Position numbers and translations under genes: made by a program. 64,000 bases of DNA. Source: an uncultured Bdellovibrionales bacterium (GTDB lineage: Bacteria > Patescibacteriota > Minisyncoccia > Moranbacterales > UBA2206). The notes beneath the pieces are model-generated. The model ran no database searches. It had not been told where the DNA came from and saw only the letters and a program-made list of their open reading frames with translations. The DNA is taken from positions 116,295-180,294 of the forward strand of contig CAZIFD010000001.1 in NCBI GenBank assembly GCA_964538685.1. Direction: 5' to 3'. Of the stretch, positions 2,994 through 61,087 are shown one piece after another; within the stretch, counting starts at the first letter, position 1; every line of letters starts with the position of its first letter.

Positions 2994-3065
2994 TGGGGAA
3001 TAGCCAAGTGGTAAGGCACATGGTTCTGGTCCATGCATTCGGGGGTCCGAATCCCTCTTCCCCAA
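2994..3065 (+). tRNA. tRNA-Gln (anticodon CTG)
   Basis: Manual fold: acceptor TGGGGAA/TTCCCCA (U1-A72, typical of tRNA-Gln), D-arm GCC-AAGTGGTAA-GGC, anticodon stem CATGG/CCATG with loop TTCTGGT, T-arm GGGGG-TCCGAAT-CCCTC, discriminator A. CCA is not encoded. Closely resembles E. coli tRNA-Gln. Confidence 0.8.
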
Positions 3066-3287
3066 CAAGATTTTATTTAATTTCGTACAAAGATTATTTT
3101 TTGCTTTTTAATTTCAAATGTGTTTATAATACAAAGGTAATGGAGGCAAATTAAGTTTAAAAGGAGAAAAAGGAGATTTGATTTGAGAAAAAAAAGAGTC
3201 AAGTATCATTTATCGCGAAAGGTTTTGGGGCAGAAAAAGTCCCAAAAGTCCGGTATCCGGAACCGCTTAAAGCGGTTCTGGTAGTCT

Positions 3288-4984: not shown

Positions 4985-5013
4985 TTGACATATCATCAAG
5001 CAAGGTTTATAAT
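4985..5013 (+). promoter_or_regulatory. Perfect consensus sigma70 promoter (TTGACA-17-TATAAT) for rplU
   Basis: TTGACA 4985-4990, 17-nt spacer, TATAAT 5008-5013, about 30 nt upstream of the rplU start. Confidence 0.55.
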
Positions 5014-5043: not shown

Positions 5044-5352
5044 ATGTTGGCAATCATCAAGACCGGAGGAAAGCAATATAAGGTCAAAGAGGGAGATAAA
5101 ATTAAAGTGGAAAAATTGGAAGGAGAAGAAGGAAGCATTGTTTCTTTTTCCGAAGTCTTATTTTTGGGAGACGAAAAAGAGGTTAAGGTTGGCGCTCCCG
5201 TTGTTTCCGGTGCTAAGGTGGAAGGAAAAATTATCAAAACCTTTCAAGATAAAAAAGTGACCGGAATTAAACACAAAGCCAAAAAAAGATATAAAGTAAA
5301 ATTCGGACATCGACAAATCGTGAGTGAAGTGGAAATTATCAAGGTAGCTTAA
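5044..5352 (+). CDS. rplU: 50S ribosomal protein L21
   Basis: MLAIIKTGGKQYKVKEGDKIKVEKL matches the L21 N-terminus. Start taken at the ATG at 5044 rather than the table's 5029. Confidence 0.85.
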   Translation: MLAIIKTGGKQYKVKEGDKIKVEKLEGEEGSIVSFSEVLFLGDEKEVKVGAPVVSGAKVEGKIIKTFQDKKVTGIKHKAKKRYKVKFGHRQIVSEVEIIKVA

Positions 5353-5355
5353 GGA

Positions 5356-5380
5356 AACGCCCCATGGGGCGTTTTTTTTG
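5356..5380 (+). terminator. Intrinsic terminator AACGCCCCATGGGGCGTTTTTTTT
   Basis: Perfect GC palindrome plus T8, immediately after the rplU stop. Confidence 0.6.
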
Positions 5381-5389
5381 TGATATAAT
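5381..5389 (+). promoter_or_regulatory. Extended -10 element (TGaTATAAT) upstream of the DUF378 gene
   Basis: TG-n-TATAAT motif about 70 nt upstream of the ATG at 5462. A strong SD (AAGGAGGTGGGG) precedes the start. Confidence 0.3.
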
Positions 5390-5461
5390 AGAATCGTGCA
5401 CAAGTTTCTGAAAATCTTATTTTGAAGTATCCGGAAAAAATAAGAAAGGAGGTGGGGAATT

Positions 5462-5668
5462 ATGAACAAATTAAAAACCTTAGACTGGATTGCTATTATT
5501 TTGGTAATTGTGGGTGGTTTGAATTGGGGATTGGTTGGACTTTTTAATTTTGATTTAGTCAAGGCGGTTTTGGGTGAAATGTCCTTTTTGTCCAGAACAG
5601 TGTATGTGTTGGTGGGGCTTTCTTCCGTTTATCTTGTTTTTGTTTCAGCTAAACTGAGAAAGGAATAG
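5462..5668 (+). CDS. DUF378-family small membrane protein
   Basis: 68 aa with two TM helices. DWIAIILVIVGGLNWGLVGLF fits the DUF378 (YuzA-like) pattern. Strong RBS. Confidence 0.6.
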   Translation: MNKLKTLDWIAIILVIVGGLNWGLVGLFNFDLVKAVLGEMSFLSRTVYVLVGLSSVYLVFVSAKLRKE

Positions 5669-5758
5669 TGATTTTTTGTTGTTCAAAAGGAGCTAGGGAT
5701 TTAGCATTTTGCCAAATCCCTAGCTTCAGCTTCGCACAGTTTATTATTAAAAAAACAG

Positions 5759-6106
5759 ATGAAAGAAGGAGGAGAAAATTTTTTTGAAGTATTGACACCG
5801 GAGCAATTGACAGATGTTAAGAATACATTTGAATTTATGAAGAAAGAGGGCGCAGATTTTCATTTTAAATCAATTAATCCTGATGAATTGGCCGACTGGA
5901 TGATTTTTAAAAAGTTTCTGGATGGCAAGCTTGAATTGTTTGAACTTGAAGAAGTAGAAAAGCAATATAGGGAAAGAAGACAAGTGAATGAGGGTGTCAA
6001 AGAGAAAGATTACGAAAATAATTCCCGGATGAATTTTTTTGGTTTGATACGAAACCTGATGACCGCTAAAAGTTTGAGTCAGCAGTTGGAGGAGCTAAAA
6101 AAATAA
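5759..6106 (+). CDS. Hypothetical protein
   Basis: 115-aa ORF in coding-like context. No recognisable motif. Confidence 0.4.
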   Translation: MKEGGENFFEVLTPEQLTDVKNTFEFMKKEGADFHFKSINPDELADWMIFKKFLDGKLELFELEEVEKQYRERRQVNEGVKEKDYENNSRMNFFGLIRNLMTAKSLSQQLEELKK

Positions 6107-12235: not shown

Positions 12236-12270
12236 GTGTCATTCCCACGAAAGCGGGAATGACAATGACA
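12236..12270. repeat. Copy of the dispersed GC-rich palindromic repeat (GTCATTCCCaCGAAAGCGGGAATGACAATGAC)
   Basis: Shares the ATTCCCGC...GCGGGAATGACAAT core with the copies at 47361-47520 and 61046-61077. The loop is inverted relative to the other copies. Lies in the divergent priA/GT26 intergenic region. Confidence 0.6.
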
Positions 12271-23436: not shown

Positions 23437-23465
23437 TTGACAAATTAATTAAAATATGCTAGAGT
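23437..23465 (+). promoter_or_regulatory. Sigma70-like promoter (TTGACA-17-TAGAGT) driving a short SD-led ORF/leader
   Basis: Perfect -35, 17-nt spacer, 4/6 -10. Followed by AAGGAGG, then a GTG-initiated 32-aa basic ORF (23507-23605), then hairpin plus T5 (23603-23650). Confidence 0.35.
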
Positions 23466-23646
23466 GCCAAGTCGGAGAATGAATTATTTCCGATTTCGGA
23501 AAAGGAGGATCCGAAATTGTGAACAACAAACCCCGACAGAAAAAAGGAGGTGATAAAATAAAAAAAGAAAATCAACAACACACCCCCTCAGGGGGTCGAG
23601 GTCGCCAGCGAGCCTGACAAACTTGCGTAAGAGCGACCTCTTTTTA

Positions 23647-40081: not shown

Positions 40082-40094
40082 TTTTTGAAAATAA

Positions 40095-40250
40095 GAAAGC
40101 CCTGGAGGAGATTTCAGAAGTCTTAGCTTCCTAATTTCTTTTTTCCTCCAGGGCTTGGGGGGGGCAAATGATATTTGCTGATAAGACTTCCGGGCGTCCC
40201 ATTGTTGGAAAAACAGGAGGGAGTGCGGGGGGCCGCCCGGAAGCCGTAAT
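40095..40250 (+). other. GC-rich structured island: two long perfect/near-perfect inverted repeats; candidate structured RNA or composite terminator
   Basis: AAGCCCTGGAGGA...(35 nt)...TCCTCCAGGGCTT is a 13-bp perfect inverted repeat. CTTCCGGGCG...(about 35 nt)...CGCCCGGAAG is a 10-bp inverted repeat extendable to about 13 bp. Local GC far above the flanks. Confidence 0.35.
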
Positions 40251-40331
40251 ATAAAGAACCTAAGTGAATATAAAGCATTAATTTCTTTTTGTCAACTGTT
40301 TTCCAGATAAATAGCTTAAATAAAGCATTTT

Positions 40332-43599: not shown

Positions 43600-45081
43600 A
43601 TGTCTCATAAAAATTTGGTAAAATCGGTTTTTTGGGTTACTTTGTCGGAAATAATTTTCAATTTATCCGGTTATGTTATTCATAGTGCGGTAGGGCGAAT
43701 TTTGGGTCCTTCTGATTATGGTCGCTATGGTTTGGTGGTGACGCTCACCACTATGGTAATTATCCTCATTGGTAACGGAATCCCAACGGCGATGAGCAAA
43801 TATTTAAGTGAAGTTTTTGAAAGCCGTCCGGGAATGATTTCAATTATCAAAAAACAGGCTATCCGTCTTCAGTTTATTTTAATTGGCGGAATTACACTTG
43901 TTTTCTTTTTTTTGTCTCCGGTTATTGCTTGGCTTCTCAAAGATTCAACCTTGACTCCCCTTTTTCAAATTTCTACTTTGATTATTCCGGCTTTTGCGGC
44001 GGCTTCTTTTTATTTTTATTATTACACCGGTCTTCATGAATTCAAATTGCAATCAGTCCTGAAAACCGTTCGTTCGGTTTTGAAAGTGGTGGCGATTATC
44101 AGTTTGGCTTACTTTTTTCAACTCAAAGGTTCGGTTGTCGGCTATGTCGTCGCTCCCGGATTGGTTTTTTTAGTTGCTTTTCTTATTGACAAATTTTGGA
44201 TTTCCAAGAAAATAGCGCTTAGAATTCAAAAAAAAGAAACGACTGGAGAATATCTTTTTGACTACAAAAAACTTATCAACTACGCTTGGCCTTTGACTCT
44301 TTTTATGCTTTTTTATGAATTTTTAATCAGCATTGACTTATATTTGGTCAAAGGTATTTTGGAAAATGATTATCTGACAGGGATTTACAACGGAGCGCTC
44401 ACGGTTGGTCGTTTGCCGTATTATCTTTTCTACGCTCTGTCAATAATTCTTTTGCCGGTAATTTCCAAAACCACTTTTGAAAATCGCCATAGCGAAACTC
44501 ACAAAATTGTTTCTCAATCGCTTCGCCTGATGGTAATTCTGCTTTTCCCGGGAGTGATTTTGATGTTAGTTTTCGCTTTGCCGATAATTCAGTTTTTTTA
44601 TGGATCGGAATTTTTAGCTTCTGCTATCCCAATGTCCATTCTTTCTTTGGGAGTGGGGTTCTTGACAATTTTCTATGTGATGAGTTTCGTGGTGAATGGA
44701 GCGGGCAAGGTGAGAGTGCCGATGTGGATCAGTTTCTGGGGTCTTTTGATTAATATTTTGCTTAATTATATTTTCATCAAAAATTGGAGCATTGTCGGCT
44801 CAGCCACGGCTACCTCTATCACTTCTTTTTTGATTATGTTGGTTATGCTTGTTTTCGTCAGAAGAGAATTCGGGGTTTTTCTCAGATTAAAAAGTCTTTC
44901 AAAAATAATTTTAGCTTCTGCGACGATGCTTTGGGTTTCAATTTATCTTCCAAAAACCGAAGACACTTTTATTTTTTATGCTATCTTCCTTTTGGCAATT
45001 TATTTTGCGGTTCTTTTGGTACTTCAGGAAATTAAAAAAGAAGACTGGCAAGTCTTCCGGAAACTGACTGGAAAGAAATAA
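43600..45081 (+). CDS. Wzx/MOP-superfamily polysaccharide (oligosaccharide-lipid) flippase
   Basis: About 14 TM helices. N-terminal pattern (WVTLSEIIFNLSGYVIHSAVGRILGPSDYGRYGLVVTL) is typical of the polysaccharide-biosynthesis flippase family. Confidence 0.75.
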   Translation: MSHKNLVKSVFWVTLSEIIFNLSGYVIHSAVGRILGPSDYGRYGLVVTLTTMVIILIGNGIPTAMSKYLSEVFESRPGMISIIKKQAIRLQFILIGGITLVFFFLSPVIAWLLKDSTLTPLFQISTLIIPAFAAASFYFYYYTGLHEFKLQSVLKTVRSVLKVVAIISLAYFFQLKGSVVGYVVAPGLVFLVAFLIDKFWISKKIALRIQKKETTGEYLFDYKKLINYAWPLTLFMLFYEFLISIDLYLVKGILENDYLTGIYNGALTVGRLPYYLFYALSIILLPVISKTTFENRHSETHKIVSQSLRLMVILLFPGVILMLVFALPIIQFFYGSEFLASAIPMSILSLGVGFLTIFYVMSFVVNGAGKVRVPMWISFWGLLINILLNYIFIKNWSIVGSATATSITSFLIMLVMLVFVRREFGVFLRLKSLSKIILASATMLWVSIYLPKTEDTFIFYAIFLLAIYFAVLLVLQEIKKEDWQVFRKLTGKK

Positions 45082-45087
45082 AAATAA

Positions 45088-45117
45088 CCCTCAAGGCACC
45101 TTGTGGCTTCTTGAGGG
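45088..45117. terminator. Bidirectional terminator-like hairpin CCCTCAAGG-N12-CTTGAGGG
   Basis: 8-9 bp stem between the Wzx stop (45081) and the stop of the minus-strand 43-aa ORF (45128). A/T-rich flanks on both sides. Confidence 0.45.
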
Positions 45118-45127
45118 AGGGGGTTGT

Positions 45128-45259
45128 TTATTTTTCTTCTTTTTTCTTTATTCCTTCTTTTTCTTTATTCGGTTCCTCCTCCAATAACGGAGGAACATAA
45201 ACCAGTCCCCCAAGTGCTATGGGAGTTCCATATTTTGGGCACGGCTCTTTTTTTGCCAT
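45128..45259 (-). CDS. Candidate 43-aa small protein (MAKKEPCPKYGTPIALGGLVYVPPLLEEEPNKEKEGIKKKEEK)
   Basis: Not in the ORF table. Very strong SD (AAAGGAGGGG) 7 nt upstream of the ATG, terminator hairpin right after the stop. Lies in a 734-bp region with no ORF of 60 aa or more. Confidence 0.3.
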   Translation of the reverse strand: MAKKEPCPKYGTPIALGGLVYVPPLLEEEPNKEKEGIKKKEEK

Positions 45260-45815
45260 TTTTTTCTCCCCTCCTTTATCCAACTATAAAATTATAAATT
45301 AAAAAATAAATATTATCAAATCTTTTAATTTTTTGGCAAAATAAAAACCCCGAAGCGTTGCGCACCGCTTGGGGGTGTGGGTAGGGGCTTTAGAATAGGC
45401 GCGACCTATTTTAAAGCCCCTTCATACATTACATATTTTCATCTTTTTCTCCTTTCTTGCGGTTTTTCATTTTTCTATTTTTTTCTGATGGGCGCCAGGC
45501 CAAGGTATTATTAAGAGGTGATGGGAGGCGACATGGCGACTCCTCCTTTCTTGTTTTGCCACTCCCTTGCCCAAGAGAGTGGCGGGGTTTTTGAATAATA
45601 TTCTCTCGCTTTTTCTCGCTTCCAATTTAAATTGGATTGGAATTAAAATAATTTAAATCCAAATCAAGTTGGAAACGAGAAAATTTTCAAAAAAGATGAA
45701 AAAATATGTAAAGAACTTTTTTACGCTTCTTGAGCGTAATGGTGGAGTATAGCATATCACGATAATCTTGTCAAGCGTTTTGCTTGTTTTTGGCTAAAAT
45801 AAAGGATTTTTTTTG

Positions 45816-47339
45816 CTATTTCCAGCGGTAAACACTCACCTTTCCTCGGACTTGAATGTTGTTTATTTTTTCCATTTTTTCTTCAATGAAGCTTTGGGCT
45901 TCTTTGGTAATGAAGACTTCATCATTATCGGAAAAAATCATCCAGCCGGACGGATTTTCGGCAATAATTTTTTCCAAGCGTTCCAAAGTAATTTTATTTT
46001 TATCCAATTCTCCCCCAAAGTCAAATACCGGAACTTTTTCTCCGGCAAAATAGTAATTGCGAAAATTACGAGCAATAAGAACATCGGAAGCAGTTTTGTT
46101 TTTTTTGAAGTAAGCGAAAATTTCCCGGTATCTGGGATTGTCGGAAGCGGAAGTCTGATTGTAGAAATTATCTTTTTGAAAAAAATAACCGAAGTTGGGC
46201 AAAAGCAAAAATGAGAGAGCAAGGCTGGCGCCGAAAATTTTGCTTTTGTTTTTGGAAAAATTATTTCTGAGAAAATCCGCCAAGCCATAGATTCCAGTGG
46301 CGACAAGAATAATTTTGAAAGACTGGACAAAAAAGATGTATTGATTGCCGGCATTCCGGTCCCAGAAGAAAACGGCCAAAATCAAAATGCCCAGAAACGA
46401 CCAAGAAAGCCAAAGTGTTTCTTTCTTGAGGTTGGCTTTTTTCCAGAGATAATAGATACCGAAAAGAATAAAAAATATTGCCAAAAGAGGAGCTTGGTAG
46501 TCGGACAGAACTTTGGAAACATAACTCCAGTGGCTGGTTAGTCCCAACCCGGCCAAAGCCGGTGAAACTTTTTCTTGAAAGAAAAGCAAGGAAAAAATCA
46601 AAAGCACCAATCCTAATCCCAAGAGAAAAGTGTATTTGTTGATTTCCAATTTCTTTTTTTCCTTTAATTTCCAAATGACTAGCGTGAGAATGTATCCGGC
46701 TAAAATGAAAACAATATTAACCGTGAGCAAATGGAGATGAAAACTGAGCGCTCCCAGAAGCAATGCCGGTAACAAATAAAAAGCATTTAGGGAAGTTTTA
46801 TTCCAGACAATTCTAAGTAGCTTATTTTCCCCTGAGTATTCTTTTTCCAGAAAACGAAAAAGAGTCCAAGAAAAAGCCAAGAAAATCGGGAAAAACATAG
46901 CGTACATTCTGAGTTTGCGGTCAAATTCAATTCCGTCCAAGCTCACCGCAAAAAGAAAAGCAGACAAAAGAGCAATAGTTTTGTTTCGGGTAAAATCTTT
47001 AGCGACAAGATAAATAAGAAGGATAGTTAAAATTCCCCAAAAAGCACTCACGCTACGAGCGGTGTTTTCGGTGGGTGGAAGGAATCTGAAAAGAGTGGCC
47101 GCTTGCCATTTGTAGGCCCAGGCTCGTTCGTCCCGAGGAGCGAATTCATTATCGGTGTTTATTTTTTCAAAATTGAAATCCCAATTTTTCCACTCCCCTG
47201 TTTGGGTATAAGCATAAGAAGAGTTAATATCCAGAAATTCGTCGGCGACAAAAGAATTTTCTCCTAATTTATGGAAGCGAAGAAAAGCTCCCAAAAGAAG
47301 AATTGCCAAGAGAACTAAAAAACTATAATTTTTTTTCAT
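45816..47339 (-). CDS. GT-C glycosyltransferase, PMT/ArnT-like (PMT_2 family)
   Basis: At least 11 TM helices. First-loop DE motif (FVADEFLD) in the position conserved in GT39/GT83 enzymes. Confidence 0.7.
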   Translation of the reverse strand: MKKNYSFLVLLAILLLGAFLRFHKLGENSFVADEFLDINSSYAYTQTGEWKNWDFNFEKINTDNEFAPRDERAWAYKWQAATLFRFLPPTENTARSVSAFWGILTILLIYLVAKDFTRNKTIALLSAFLFAVSLDGIEFDRKLRMYAMFFPIFLAFSWTLFRFLEKEYSGENKLLRIVWNKTSLNAFYLLPALLLGALSFHLHLLTVNIVFILAGYILTLVIWKLKEKKKLEINKYTFLLGLGLVLLIFSLLFFQEKVSPALAGLGLTSHWSYVSKVLSDYQAPLLAIFFILFGIYYLWKKANLKKETLWLSWSFLGILILAVFFWDRNAGNQYIFFVQSFKIILVATGIYGLADFLRNNFSKNKSKIFGASLALSFLLLPNFGYFFQKDNFYNQTSASDNPRYREIFAYFKKNKTASDVLIARNFRNYYFAGEKVPVFDFGGELDKNKITLERLEKIIAENPSGWMIFSDNDEVFITKEAQSFIEEKMEKINNIQVRGKVSVYRWK

Positions 47340-47360: not shown

Positions 47361-47520
47361 TTATTTTACTGGATTCCCGCTTTCGCGGGAATGACAATAA
47401 CTTTAGTTATTTTAATGAATTCTAGTTTTCGCGGGAATGACAATAACTCTGGTTGTTTTACTGGATTCCCGCTTTCGCTCGCTTCGCTGAAGCTTTATTG
47501 AAGCGGGTGGGAATGACAGT
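47361..47520. repeat. Tandem/degenerate array of the dispersed GC-rich palindromic repeat (core ACTGGATTCCCGCTTTCGCGGGAATGACAATAACT)
   Basis: One full copy (47368-47408), one half-copy (TTTCGCGGGAATGACAATAACT) and one copy with about 26 nt inserted into the palindrome (CCCGCTTTCGC[...]GGGTGGGAATGACA). The same core occurs at 12236-12270 and 61046-61077. Confidence 0.65.
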
Positions 47521-60508: not shown

Positions 60509-61077
60509 AAGTCATTTTTCTTGATCGGGATGGGACAATTAATGTGGACAAGGGCTATGTTTTTCAAAAAGAAAATTTGGTTTGGGAAAAAAATGTGATT
60601 TCAGGACTCAAGCTTCTTGGGGAAAGCGGATTTGAATTCATAATCATTACTAATCAGTCGGGAATCGCCCGAGGATATTTTTCCGAAAAAGAATTTTTTG
60701 AGTTTAATGATTTTTTGGTGGCGGAACTAAAAAAAGAAAACATAGCCATCAAAAAAACCTATTTTTGCCCCTATCATCCCACTGAAGGAATAGGAAAATA
60801 TTTACTTGATTCCCCTCTTAGAAAACCGGGAACCGGAATGATTGAAAAAGCTTTTCGGGATTTTCCGATTGACAAAAAATCATCTTGGATGATTGGCGAC
60901 AAATGGTCAGATGTTTTGGCGGGAAAAAATTTCGGTTTGCGTTCAGTTTTGGTTTCAACCGGAAAAGCCGGTCAAGACAAAGAGCACCAAACTGAGGCTG
61001 ATTTTGTGGCTAAAGATTTTCTGGAAGCGGCCAAGTTTATAATAAACATGACTGGATTCCCGCTTTCGCGGGAATGA
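60487..61077 (+). CDS. gmhB: D,D-heptose 1,7-bisphosphate phosphatase (HAD)
   Basis: FLDRDGTIN motif I, ...GDKWSD motif IV. The last nine codons and the stop come from the palindromic repeat. Confidence 0.75.
   Translation: MDKEKPMKVIFLDRDGTINVDKGYVFQKENLVWEKNVISGLKLLGESGFEFIIITNQSGIARGYFSEKEFFEFNDFLVAELKKENIAIKKTYFCPYHPTEGIGKYLLDSPLRKPGTGMIEKAFRDFPIDKKSSWMIGDKWSDVLAGKNFGLRSVLVSTGKAGQDKEHQTEADFVAKDFLEAAKFIINMTGFPLSRE
61046..61077. repeat. Copy of the dispersed GC-rich palindromic repeat (ACTGGATTCCCGCTTTCGCGGGAATGACAA), forming the 3' end and stop of gmhB
   Basis: Identical core to 47368-47400. Encodes the ...MTGFPLSRE* tail of gmhB. Confidence 0.65.
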
Positions 61078-61087
61078 CAAAAAAAAT

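Follow-up and report, generated by a model that had tools for sequence, protein, structure and literature searches.

This locus raises the question of what a member of Candidatus Moranbacteria keeps in 734 bp of DNA in which no gene of ordinary length can be found. The gap (45082-45815) is the largest of the 16 gaps of more than 120 nt in the window, by which we mean the whole 64-kb stretch of DNA analysed. In agreement with the original prediction it contains no open reading frame (ORF) of at least 60 aa, the longest ones reaching 57 aa (plus strand, TTG start), 52 aa (minus strand) and 51 aa (minus strand). It is flanked by a wzx-like flippase gene and a gene for a GT-C (GT39-like) glycosyltransferase, and the glycan-biosynthesis locus around this junction comprises GT1, Wzx and three GT-C genes. 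The two neighbours converge. They had been described as divergent, which is wrong, and the cis-regulatory hub proposed for divergent genes fails, as the 3' ends of both genes face the gap. The emphasis placed on the minus strand was borne out, all signals lying on this strand in a coherent order: promoter P1, a hairpin-rich stretch of about 400 nt, terminator H2, promoter P2, a Shine-Dalgarno (SD) sequence, a 43-codon ORF and terminator H1. Both promoter-like sites and a long AT-rich hairpin are additions to the features named before. The signals and their neighbours are as follows.

43600-45081, plus strand: wzx-like flippase gene, flanking the gap by its 3' end
45080-45117, minus strand: H1, terminator hairpin CCCUCAAG...CUUGAGGG followed by UUAUUUUUAUUU (-18.1 kcal/mol; minus strand z -3.9, plus strand z -2.1)
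45128-45259, minus strand: 43-codon ORF MAKKEPCPKYGTPIALGGLVYVPPLLEEEPNKEKEGIKKKEEK (ATG 45259, stop TAA 45130-45128)
45268-45277, minus strand: SD-like sequence AAAGGAGGGG, 8 nt before the ATG
45291-45319, minus strand: P2, promoter-like site TTGATA-17-TATAAT (11/12 match)
45336-45376, minus strand: H2, intrinsic terminator, CCCC-AAGCG...CGCUU-GGGG followed by UUUUUAUUUU (hairpin 45347-45376; -16.8 kcal/mol, z -2.8)
about 45383-45421, minus strand: H3, GC-capped hairpin with a near-perfect stem of 16-17 pairs, AGGGGCTTTAGAATAGG / CCTATTTTAAAGCCCCT (minus strand z -5.4, plus strand z -5.9)
45422-45459, minus strand: second box CAAGAAAGGAG, then the 6-codon mini-ORF MKICNV (ATG 45442, TGA ending at 45422), abutting H3
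45511-45553, minus strand: first box CAAGAAAGGAG(GAG), then the 7-codon mini-ORF MSPPITS (ATG 45534, TAA 45513-45511)
45558-45583, minus strand: H5, 11-pair GC-rich hairpin, loop GGGC (minus strand z -3.9, plus strand z -2.4)
45611-45683, minus strand: 35-pair AT-rich hairpin containing the perfect palindrome CCAATTTAAATTGG (-31.8 kcal/mol, z -7.5)
45721-45739, minus strand: short 5' hairpin UUACGCU-CAAGA-AGCGUAA (z -1.7, not significant alone)
45746-45774, minus strand: P1, sigma-70-type promoter-like site TTGACA-17-TATACT with the TG of an extended -10 (11/12 match plus TG)
45816-47339, minus strand: GT-C (GT39-like) glycosyltransferase gene, flanking the gap by its 3' end

The content of the gap is best read as an unconserved, lineage-specific insert and not as a riboswitch or a shared regulatory hub; this follows from the finding that nothing similar turned up in any other genome searched. 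We favour the view that this insert comprises two tandem minus-strand transcription units, an orphan sRNA-like unit (unit 1) and an orphan small-protein gene (unit 2), and give this view about an even chance of being correct. It is supported by the alternation of two promoter-like sites and two terminators along a single strand (P-T-P-(SD-ORF)-T), and opposed by the searches, which revealed no conservation of the peptide, of the DNA or, for any reading frame of unit 1, of called ORFs. The signals, the strand they lie on and their order are shown, as are the hairpin excess, the codon bias of the 43-codon ORF and the failure to find homologues; transcription, translation and function of both units are what we infer. 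The promoters and terminators were called by their consensus in AT-rich DNA and are to be taken as predicted sites, not as signs of expression. Eight promoter sites with at least 11/12 matches occur in the 64 kb, where 3.3 are expected, and two of these eight are in the gap and on the same strand.

The putative hairpin-rich first unit

Transcription from P1 is predicted to start near 45739, about 42 nt past the GT-C stop codon, and would give an apparently non-coding RNA of about 400 nt ending at H2, which lies at this distance from P1 and is not followed by a U-run on the plus strand. The RNA would carry the 35-pair AT-rich hairpin, H5, H3 and two SD-like boxes, each with a mini-ORF of 6-7 codons. 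No convincing terminator for GT-C was seen before H2, so that GT-C transcripts, too, probably enter this stretch and are terminated at H2. A promoter and a Rho-independent terminator are predicted here on one strand without a coding signal between them, the arrangement by which an sRNA gene is recognised: the frames of unit 1 have codon-usage scores of -0.11 to 0.03, and their six-frame pieces gave no match in Pfam and PHROGs. The small RNA suggested by the original prediction is compatible with this bracketing by promoter and terminator. We propose an orphan sRNA-like transcript whose hairpins may serve mainly for stabilising the RNA and insulating the convergent genes.

Folding of the 411-nt stretch 45745-45335 gave a z of -9.7 for the minus and -5.9 for the plus strand, compared with -1 to -5.5 for the other gaps and about 0 for 300-nt control windows at regular intervals across the window. 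Three of the eight strong hairpins of the 64-kb window, defined as having 10 or more pairs, 5 or more of them GC, lie in the gap. Its interior consists of separate local hairpins and not of one long foldback; a single large domain closed by a long-range helix was considered and rejected, this helix being marginal and reached by 3.3% of shuffles. For the AT-rich hairpin, none of 200 shuffles equalled its stability and none of 300 reached its score. Owing to U.G wobbles its energy is lower on the minus strand (-31.8 kcal/mol) than on the plus strand (-28.6 kcal/mol), and in H5 a U.G wobble of the minus strand becomes a C.A mismatch on the plus strand. The greater stability that G.U pairs give the AT-rich hairpin, H5 and H1 on the minus strand speaks for the two-unit reading; against it stands H3, which folds a little better on the plus strand. 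H3 has no U-run 3' of it on the minus strand. The two adjacent GC-rich hairpins reported previously are real and correspond to H2 and H3, and the further hairpin with an SD-led ORF of 7 aa corresponds to H5 and MSPPITS with its SD-like box. The 11-nt box is repeated exactly (45543-45553 and 45449-45459). GGAGG of the first box can pair with CCUCC within the 7-codon mini-ORF, the resulting hairpin not being significant (z -1.1). A duplex scan for sRNA targets against 45 start regions in the window gave a best energy equal to the shuffled expectation.

Orphan intergenic sRNAs are known, as are 3'-UTR sRNAs with their own promoter such as MicL and DapZ of enterobacteria. The gap resembles these in having a sigma-70-type promoter just past the upstream stop codon, a structured non-coding stretch and a Rho-independent terminator, at which the upstream mRNA would end as well. 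At about 400 nt unit 1 is longer than most sRNAs, and no conserved seed, target or homologue was found. ARAGORN detected no tRNA or tmRNA in the gap, and the one gathering-level Rfam match in the whole window is a tRNA-Gln at 2994. Two further candidates were rejected: a replication origin, terminus or dif site, as the window has no turning point of GC skew and shows isolated partial motif matches only, and recoding by an alternative genetic code, as TGA, TAG and TAA each end real genes.

The putative second unit with its 43-codon ORF

P2 sits between H2 and the 43-codon ORF. With a start predicted near 45284, the leader would be about 25 nt long and contain a strong SD; the 43-codon ORF comes next, and then H1, which also faces wzx. 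The SD, the ORF (45259->45128) and its translation are present as originally described, and so is the terminator hairpin at 45117->45088, with a z of -3.9 and a U-run 3' of it on the minus strand. H1 lies 10 nt past the stop codon of the ORF and, on the other strand, 6 nt past that of wzx, and it probably serves both converging transcripts. The length of the ORF is unremarkable, as it is expected by chance: 67% of dinucleotide shuffles of the gap contain an ATG ORF of at least 43 codons, a fraction that falls to 4.7% if an SD-like motif is required upstream. The codon-usage score of the ORF is 0.20, compared with 0.18 +/- 0.08 for real in-frame windows, and is reached by 2.1% of stop-free shuffles and 0.02% of off-frame windows; by this score the ORF ranks third among about 110 open stretches in all gaps, after the N-terminus of L21 and a DUF378 gene. 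Gene callers annotated it on ENA and Logan contigs.

Of the 44 long ORFs in the window, 43 have no SD. In the 128 kb of the two strands AAAGGAG was counted 19 times, three times of these on the minus strand of the gap. SD motifs are thus scarce here and overrepresented in the gap. The small DUF378 gene, which is confirmed by Pfam, has the SD AAGAAAGGAGGTGGGG, very similar to AAAGGAGGGG. The 43-codon ORF has two of the marks by which a small gene is judged here, a ribosome-binding site of the kind used in this genome and genome-like codon usage. About half of the Parcubacteria 16S genes are without the anti-SD motif (PMC9297842), and since the 16S gene is located outside the window, the function of the SD here rests on the DUF378 example. 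The proposal of an unannotated small protein stands as to promoter, SD, gene-like codon usage and terminator, but no homologue of the peptide was found; unit 2 would encode an orphan small protein. The peptide has a proline-interrupted hydrophobic stretch of 15 residues and no run of about 18 or more hydrophobic residues. A tryptic fragment of it is YGTPIALGGLVYVPPLLEEEPNK.

In dual-function RNAs such as RNAIII/delta-haemolysin, SgrS/SgrT and SR1/SR1P, a small ORF is joined to a structured RNA with a regulatory role. The gap is similar in placing a hairpin-rich RNA and an SD-led small ORF on one strand of a short locus; it differs in that a terminator and a promoter split the structured part from the ORF, so that the two look like two transcripts, and in that there is no relation in sequence or in Rfam. 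In type I toxin-antitoxin loci such as hok/sok and fst/RNAII, similarities are a small ORF adjoining a structured RNA gene, strong promoters on both and a terminator common with the converging transcript. In contrast to these loci, the peptide has no transmembrane helix and the units are arranged in tandem and not antisense, the complementarity between 45336-45739 and 45085-45284 being confined to low-complexity A/T runs.

Homologue searches and the junction in relatives

The 43-aa peptide retrieved itself only from 5.8 billion clusters, and itself plus two artefacts, arising from tandem repeats in the targets, from 1.84 billion representatives. It had no tblastn match in Moranbacteria relatives, blastx of the gap against all local ORFs gave no match, and none of the small peptides of the gap matched NCBIfam. 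Concatenated six-frame pieces of unit 1, a search aimed at ORFs called spuriously on homologous DNA, found nothing among 5.8 billion proteins. At the DNA level, blastn and nhmmer against 84 Moranbacteria loci and blastn against phage and plasmid collections were without a match. Pattern scans with H3, H5, the SD box, the AT-rich hairpin and the back-translated peptide found no match in viral contigs. Of two pattern scans of metagenome contigs, the second yielded 120 loci, all of them chance matches without further similarity. Rfam 15, searched over 44900-46000 at E up to 10, returned sub-threshold chance matches only, mostly eukaryotic miRNA models on the AT-rich hairpin; the preQ1-II model reached 19.8 bits, against a gathering score of 47. 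The riboswitch leader suggested earlier therefore found no Rfam family even at this permissive threshold. No homologue of the gap DNA or of the peptide was found that could be aligned for covariation in the hairpins. Contigs of the same organism are identical save one SNP at 45085.

Synteny was compared in 80 GTDB Moranbacteria loci around the GT-C gene, together with the closest relatives from protein searches (Logan, JGI and NCBI assemblies). The junction between the GT and Wzx genes spans from -4 nt to 4.1 kb in 70 Moranbacteria loci and contains diverse ORFs. Some relatives have junctions of 24-170 nt or overlapping stop codons, and the closest ones have a 4-nt overlap with the next gene in place of the gap. 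The short junctions in relatives are strong hairpins (z -5 to -9). Moreover, REP-like GGATTCCCGC...GCGGGAATGACA hairpins are present in the genome, and relatives carry them at the same junction. The junction between the 3' ends of GT-C and the wzx-like gene is hypervariable in Candidatus Moranbacteria, and we suggest that the gap represents lineage-specific DNA inserted there. Lack of conservation of the peptide or of the structures in related genomes had been set beforehand as a refutation, and no conservation was found as far as this is testable; the nearest sampled relatives, at 62-63% identity in the flanking GT-C protein, lack the whole gap, which makes this a weak test of conservation.

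Alternative explanations and their weight

The main rival to the two-unit reading regards the gap as a non-functional scar, left at a hypervariable junction by one or several gene cassettes that are decaying but whose promoters, SD boxes, initial codons and terminators can still be made out. We consider it possible, if unlikely. It agrees with junction contents that differ among Moranbacteria, from nothing to 4.1 kb, within a glycan-biosynthesis locus, and with the finding that nothing of the gap is conserved in the searches made; the two SD boxes with only 6-7 codons after them resemble truncated gene starts, and the strong hairpins at the relatives' short junctions imply that hairpins could accumulate here. 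It is at odds with four signals that are intact, near consensus and properly ordered on one strand, with the genome-typical codon usage retained by the 43-codon ORF, and with six-frame pieces that are unlike any protein family or the junction ORFs of relatives. Compact CPR genomes are, in addition, expected to delete useless DNA quickly. That the gap is instead a long structured 3' UTR with a terminator stack for the converging genes, its promoters and ORF being non-functional, appears highly improbable to us. Such a role would account for the absence of a convincing GT-C terminator upstream of H2 and for the position of H1 just behind wzx, and relatives likewise have strong hairpins in their convergent gap, but there 24-170 nt or overlapping stop codons suffice, and two near-consensus promoters, the enrichment of SD motifs and the codon bias of the ORF are left unexplained.

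Two other explanations concern the hairpin-rich part. The minus strand might form one regulated unit in which a structured leader, a riboswitch or a leader-peptide attenuator, controls the 43-codon ORF through H2 as a conditional terminator, a scenario that we hold to be very unlikely. In leader-peptide transcription attenuators such as the trp, his and erm leaders, SD-led mini-ORFs precede a terminator hairpin, and this is also seen in the gap, where the order of structured region, terminator, SD and ORF is that of an attenuator, the second mini-ORF stops exactly where H3 begins, a short way before the terminator, and P2 may have arisen by chance, the DNA being AT-rich. Unlike in attenuators, however, no antiterminator pairing appears in constraint folds, the codons of the mini-ORFs are not obviously diagnostic and the downstream ORF has a predicted promoter of its own. 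When the stop region of the mini-ORF and 0-16 nt of H3 were blocked, the terminator 45376-45347 formed in every minimum-energy fold. The attenuator-like leader put forward by the original prediction is thus not supported, as the terminator never opens in these constraint folds and H2 and the 11/12 promoter-like site intervene. Moreover, Rfam holds no riboswitch or leader family for it, 400 nt would be unusual for a 43-codon ORF, and there are no homologues showing alternative pairings. Folding that derives from inverted repeats and not from selection on RNA, as expected if this part is one or several small non-autonomous mobile or repeated elements of MITE or REP type, is in our judgement extremely unlikely. 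The two arms of a 16-nt inverted repeat (45433-45448 and 45690-45705, 94% complementary), around which no clear duplication was seen, enclose about 270 bp, and Logan contigs from two other samples end at 45751 and 45774 and resume at 45366. The REP-like hairpins of this genome and of the same junction in relatives point in the same direction; hairpins of the GGGAATGACA type elsewhere in the window are, like those of the gap, GC-containing, intergenic and placed at convergent junctions. The gap hairpins differ from these in sequence, however, and are single-copy wherever this can be checked: no second copy of the gap elements was found in the 64-kb window or in the 84 Moranbacteria loci, and phages, plasmids, viral and metagenome contigs and called ORFs gave no match. 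In addition, 3.3% of shuffles contain a repeat as good as the bracketing one, which puts it barely above chance, the interior is made of separate local hairpins, and the Logan contig of SRR5581382 runs through the gap and yet breaks at a true, REP-like repeat at 47396.

Returning to the two-unit reading, a bolder version would take unit 1 (45739-45336) as a new lineage-restricted structured regulatory RNA with SD-led micro-ORFs as sensors, acting together with the 43-aa protein on the surrounding glycan locus (Wzx flippase, GT-C), the whole being an RNA-plus-peptide module acquired at a recombination hotspot. We regard this version as improbable. The region is confined to a single lineage, is without comparative support and is not the discovery of a new class. 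Provided that both units are expressed, a CPR (Moranbacteria) genome would be shown to have an orphan sRNA as well as an orphan micro-protein, and we found neither an sRNA nor a micro-protein described for Moranbacteria in the literature searched. The site of the units is within a locus for cell-surface glycosylation, which differs from relative to relative. The main practical value of the region is as a target for metatranscriptome mapping. Finally, SD motifs are used very selectively in this genome and could for this reason help to flag small genes that were missed.

A variable junction between convergent genes

The gap between the following two genes is, at 734 bp (45082-45815), the biggest of the 16 gaps exceeding 120 nt in the 64-kb window, and its longest ORF comprises 57 aa, in line with the claim that it holds no ORF of 60 aa or more.

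43600-45081, plus strand, wzx-like flippase gene (Pfam Polysacc_synt/MurJ)
45816-47339, minus strand, gene for a 507-aa membrane protein (GT-C), whose relatives are annotated as GT39-type glycosyltransferases

The hairpins, Shine-Dalgarno (SD) motifs, 43-codon ORF and terminator listed in the original prediction were all found in place. Its description of the flanking genes as divergent was wrong, because their 3' ends face each other across the gap, which makes them convergent.

The names borne by homologues of the 507-aa protein and by 80 related genome loci place the window in a Candidatus Moranbacteria (Patescibacteria/CPR) genome. The same organism is present in several assemblies with identical sequence, a SNP at 45085 being the sole difference seen. 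The nearest other GT-C proteins share merely 62-63% identity, and on their contigs the next gene, convergent and encoding a beta-helix protein, has a 4-nt overlap with the GT-C stop, which leaves these relatives with no gap. Across 70 Moranbacteria loci with both genes placed, the GT-C and wzx stops lie between -4 nt and 4.1 kb apart, the ORFs inserted at the junction are mutually unrelated, and its short versions are mere strong hairpins (z -5 to -9), some of them REP-like GGAATGACA elements. This convergent junction is thus a hotspot whose content varies across the clade, and the 734 bp of the gap are specific to their own lineage. Among the inserts are beta-helix/NosD-like proteins of ~500 aa, together with several ORFs, 130-250 aa long, that are not related to one another; the junction DNA of three loci (L059, L066, L069) is 69-73% identical, and a 76-aa ORF occurs in L066 and in L069. 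Gap-like sequence was found neither in the related Moranbacteria loci compared, nor in phage or plasmid records, nor by pattern scans of viral (five) and metagenome (two) contigs. Conservation of the peptide or of the structures, whose absence would count against the original prediction, was likewise not found in these or, for the peptide, in protein sets, although this is a weak test with the nearest relatives so distant and lacking the gap.

With moderate confidence we read the gap as a lineage-specific insert at this hypervariable junction that would contain two orphans, an sRNA-like unit and a small-protein gene, both with a putative promoter and terminator of their own. The main competing explanation, that the gap consists of recognisable leftovers of a lost cassette, is distinctly less probable. 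Nothing shows that the gap is tied to a known family, and the status of a new class is likewise unsupported.

Two predicted transcription units on the minus strand

The signals on the minus strand are listed here in the order of transcription, with fold z-scores for the hairpins (H1, H2, H3, H5 and an AT-rich one) and the promoter-like sites P1 and P2 taken from a consensus scan.

45774-45746, minus strand, P1, near-perfect sigma-70-type promoter-like site (TTGACA-17-TATACT with extended -10 TG)
45611-45683, minus strand, AT hairpin, 35 pairs, z -7.5, overlooked by the original prediction
45558-45583, minus strand, H5, z -3.9
45553-45543 and 45459-45449, minus strand, exact repeat of the 11-nt box CAAGAAAGGAG, with the mini-ORFs MSPPITS and MKICNV, one at SD spacing past each copy
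45384-45420, minus strand, H3, z -5.4
45347-45376, minus strand, H2, z -2.8
45319-45291, minus strand, P2, near-perfect sigma-70-type promoter-like site (TTGATA-17-TATAAT)
45259-45128, minus strand, 43-codon ORF preceded by an SD motif
45088-45117, minus strand, H1, z -3.9

Promoter-like sites matching at least 11/12 positions number 8 in the window versus 3.3 +/- 1.8 in composition-matched shuffles. H2 followed by UUUUUAUUUU and H1 followed by UUAUUUUUAUUU occur on the minus strand only, or are best there. The resulting series of P1, ~400 nt (unit 1), terminator H2, P2, SD, 43-codon ORF (unit 2) and terminator H1 places four same-strand signals in the sole sensible order, which would be hard to attribute to accident, and from this order we read the gap as two tandem predicted transcription units. 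The original prediction had the strand right; its single unit is read here as two putative promoter-terminator sets in tandem. GT-C has no convincing terminator before H2, so that its transcripts probably end there as well.

Strict hairpins (10 or more pairs, 5 or more of them GC, with a loop of 3-9) number 8 in the window, 3 of them inside the gap, and the gap hairpins exceed chance expectation; a small 5' hairpin and a GGAGG/CCUCC hairpin have no significance by fold z-score. Folding of 45745-45335 (411 nt) gives z -9.7 for the minus strand and -5.9 for the plus strand, compared with -1 to -5.5 for other gaps of the genome and ~0 for regularly spaced control windows. G.U pairs raise the minus-strand stability of the AT hairpin, H5 and H1; H3 is marginally more stable on the plus strand. 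A long-range pairing (45436-45448 with 45690-45702) could close one domain, but 3.3% of shuffles match it, for which reason one large fold is not asserted.

Explanations considered for unit 1

The frames of unit 1 carry no coding signal (codon scores -0.11 to 0.03) and match nothing in Pfam or PHROGs, and none of them has a similar called ORF among 5.8 billion proteins. Rfam, at gathering score and at E up to 10, returned no family, and ARAGORN found nothing in the gap. A small RNA, one of the options offered originally, is possible in so far as P1 and H2 bracket a non-coding unit, albeit one with no Rfam family. That unit 1 serves as a riboswitch or attenuator-like leader of the 43-codon ORF, as had also been proposed, is very improbable, since P2 sits between H2 and the ORF and H2 never opens: when the stop region of the second mini-ORF was blocked together with as many as 16 nt of H3, mimicking a terminating ribosome, all minimum-energy folds kept the H2 terminator and no antiterminator appeared. 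What stands of the original prediction is the minus strand, a possible small protein and a possible small RNA.

A multi-copy element was considered because Logan contigs from two other samples (SRR30684747, SRR30684748) end at 45751 and 45774 and pick up again at 45366, thus skipping unit 1 with breaks at both edges; outside 45367-45750 they are 99.9-100% identical to the window. Repeats typically break these assemblies: Logan contigs of three samples terminate exactly at the end of the true repeat GGGAATGACA at 47396, where the contigs skipping unit 1 also start. However, the SRR5581382 contig is broken at 47396 yet continuous across unit 1, and the window contains no second copy of gap sequence, which makes a multi-copy element unlikely; low coverage in AT-rich DNA or strain variation would more likely account for the breaks.

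The repeat belongs to a REP-like hairpin family ending in GGGAATGACA (e.g., CTGGATTCCCGCTTTCGCGGGAATGACA), with three copies between the two GT-C genes and similar elements at the GT-C/wzx junction of relatives.

47372-47396, 47418-47442, 47465-47518, 12237-12264 and 61070-61079, REP-like hairpin repeats in the window
5528-5620 of L011 and 5525-5662 of L012, REP-like hairpin repeats in compared loci

The 43-codon ORF and other small units

Dinucleotide shuffling of the gap yields an ATG ORF of at least 43 codons in 67% of cases, so the length of the ORF by itself is nothing remarkable; with an SD-like motif upstream the fraction is 4.7%. With starts taken by the longest-ORF rule, none of the 44 long ORFs, whose upstream regions are AT-rich, has a canonical SD, and solely wzx has a weak AAGGAAGA. 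This scarcity fits the published absence of the anti-SD motif from roughly half of Parcubacteria 16S genes (PMC9297842). The two strands of the window together contain 19 copies of AAAGGAG, 3 of these on the minus strand of the gap, and the scarce AAAGGAG(G) motifs gather in intergenic gaps ahead of small ORFs. The AAAGGAGGGG ahead of the 43-codon ORF closely resembles the AAGAAAGGAGGTGGGG upstream of the 68-aa DUF378 gene (Pfam E 1e-24), one of the genes in this genome by which SD appears to remain in use.

With the long genes of the window as training set, the ORF has a codon-usage log-odds score of 0.20, compared with 0.18 +/- 0.08 for real in-frame 43-codon windows and -0.37 +/- 0.24 for off-frame ones; 2.1% of its stop-free shuffles score as high. 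Of the ~110 open stretches that the gaps of the window contain, only the unlisted L21 start and the DUF378 gene score higher, which puts the ORF in third place. The 43-aa peptide matched only itself among 5.8 billion clusters, itself and two tandem-repeat artefacts among 1.84 billion representatives, nothing in Pfam or NCBIfam and, by the tblastn check originally proposed, nothing in Moranbacteria relatives. The unannotated small protein suggested in the original prediction thus gains from the SD and the gene-like codon score and lacks a homologue; the ORF is, on balance, probably a real, translated orphan gene, with the caveat of the anti-SD status of the host 16S, whose gene lies outside the window.

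Further small units occur elsewhere in the window. At 5045-5669 the list of ORFs of at least 60 aa misses two real genes (L21, DUF378) because it shows a spurious 134-aa minus-strand ORF at 5158-5562. A compact promoter-to-terminator unit (23437-23646) lies just upstream of rpmA (L27) and gave no hit in Rfam, Pfam or NCBIfam, and a predicted orphan sRNA-like unit (40087-40295), unmatched in Rfam at E up to 1, runs antisense between two plus-strand genes.

4985-5013, promoter-like site, 12/12
5045 (start), ribosomal protein L21, Pfam E 8e-13 on the N-terminus
5463-5669, DUF378 gene, SD-led
~5785-6105, further SD-led ORF, ~107 aa
23437-23646, plus strand, unit with promoter-like TTGACA-17-TAGAGT with TG and two AAAGGAGG motifs
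23519-23617, plus strand, 32-aa basic ORF, GTG start, VNNKPRQKKGGDKIKKENQQHTPSGGRGRQRA; codon score 0.14 for the enclosing 44-codon open stretch
3' of the 32-aa ORF, plus strand, terminator, GAGGTCGC...GCGACCTC then TTTTT
40295-40267, minus strand, promoter-like site, 11/12
40087-40295, minus strand, unit with a structured, GC-rich (41%) body of ~170 nt and a 12-pair stem, GGCUUCCGGGCG/CGCCCGGAAGUC
40154-40099, minus strand, terminator with U-run

On the plus strand 3' of tRNA-Gln (2994-3066), two AAAGGAG precede a very basic 33-aa TTG-start ORF (3183-3284, RKKRVKYHLSRKVLGQKKSQKSGIRNRLKRFW), followed by hairpins and a terminator (GGGGGGTCTTATGGCCCCCC then TGTTTTTT). With a codon score of -0.25 the ORF does not look coding, which makes a further small non-coding unit a possibility.
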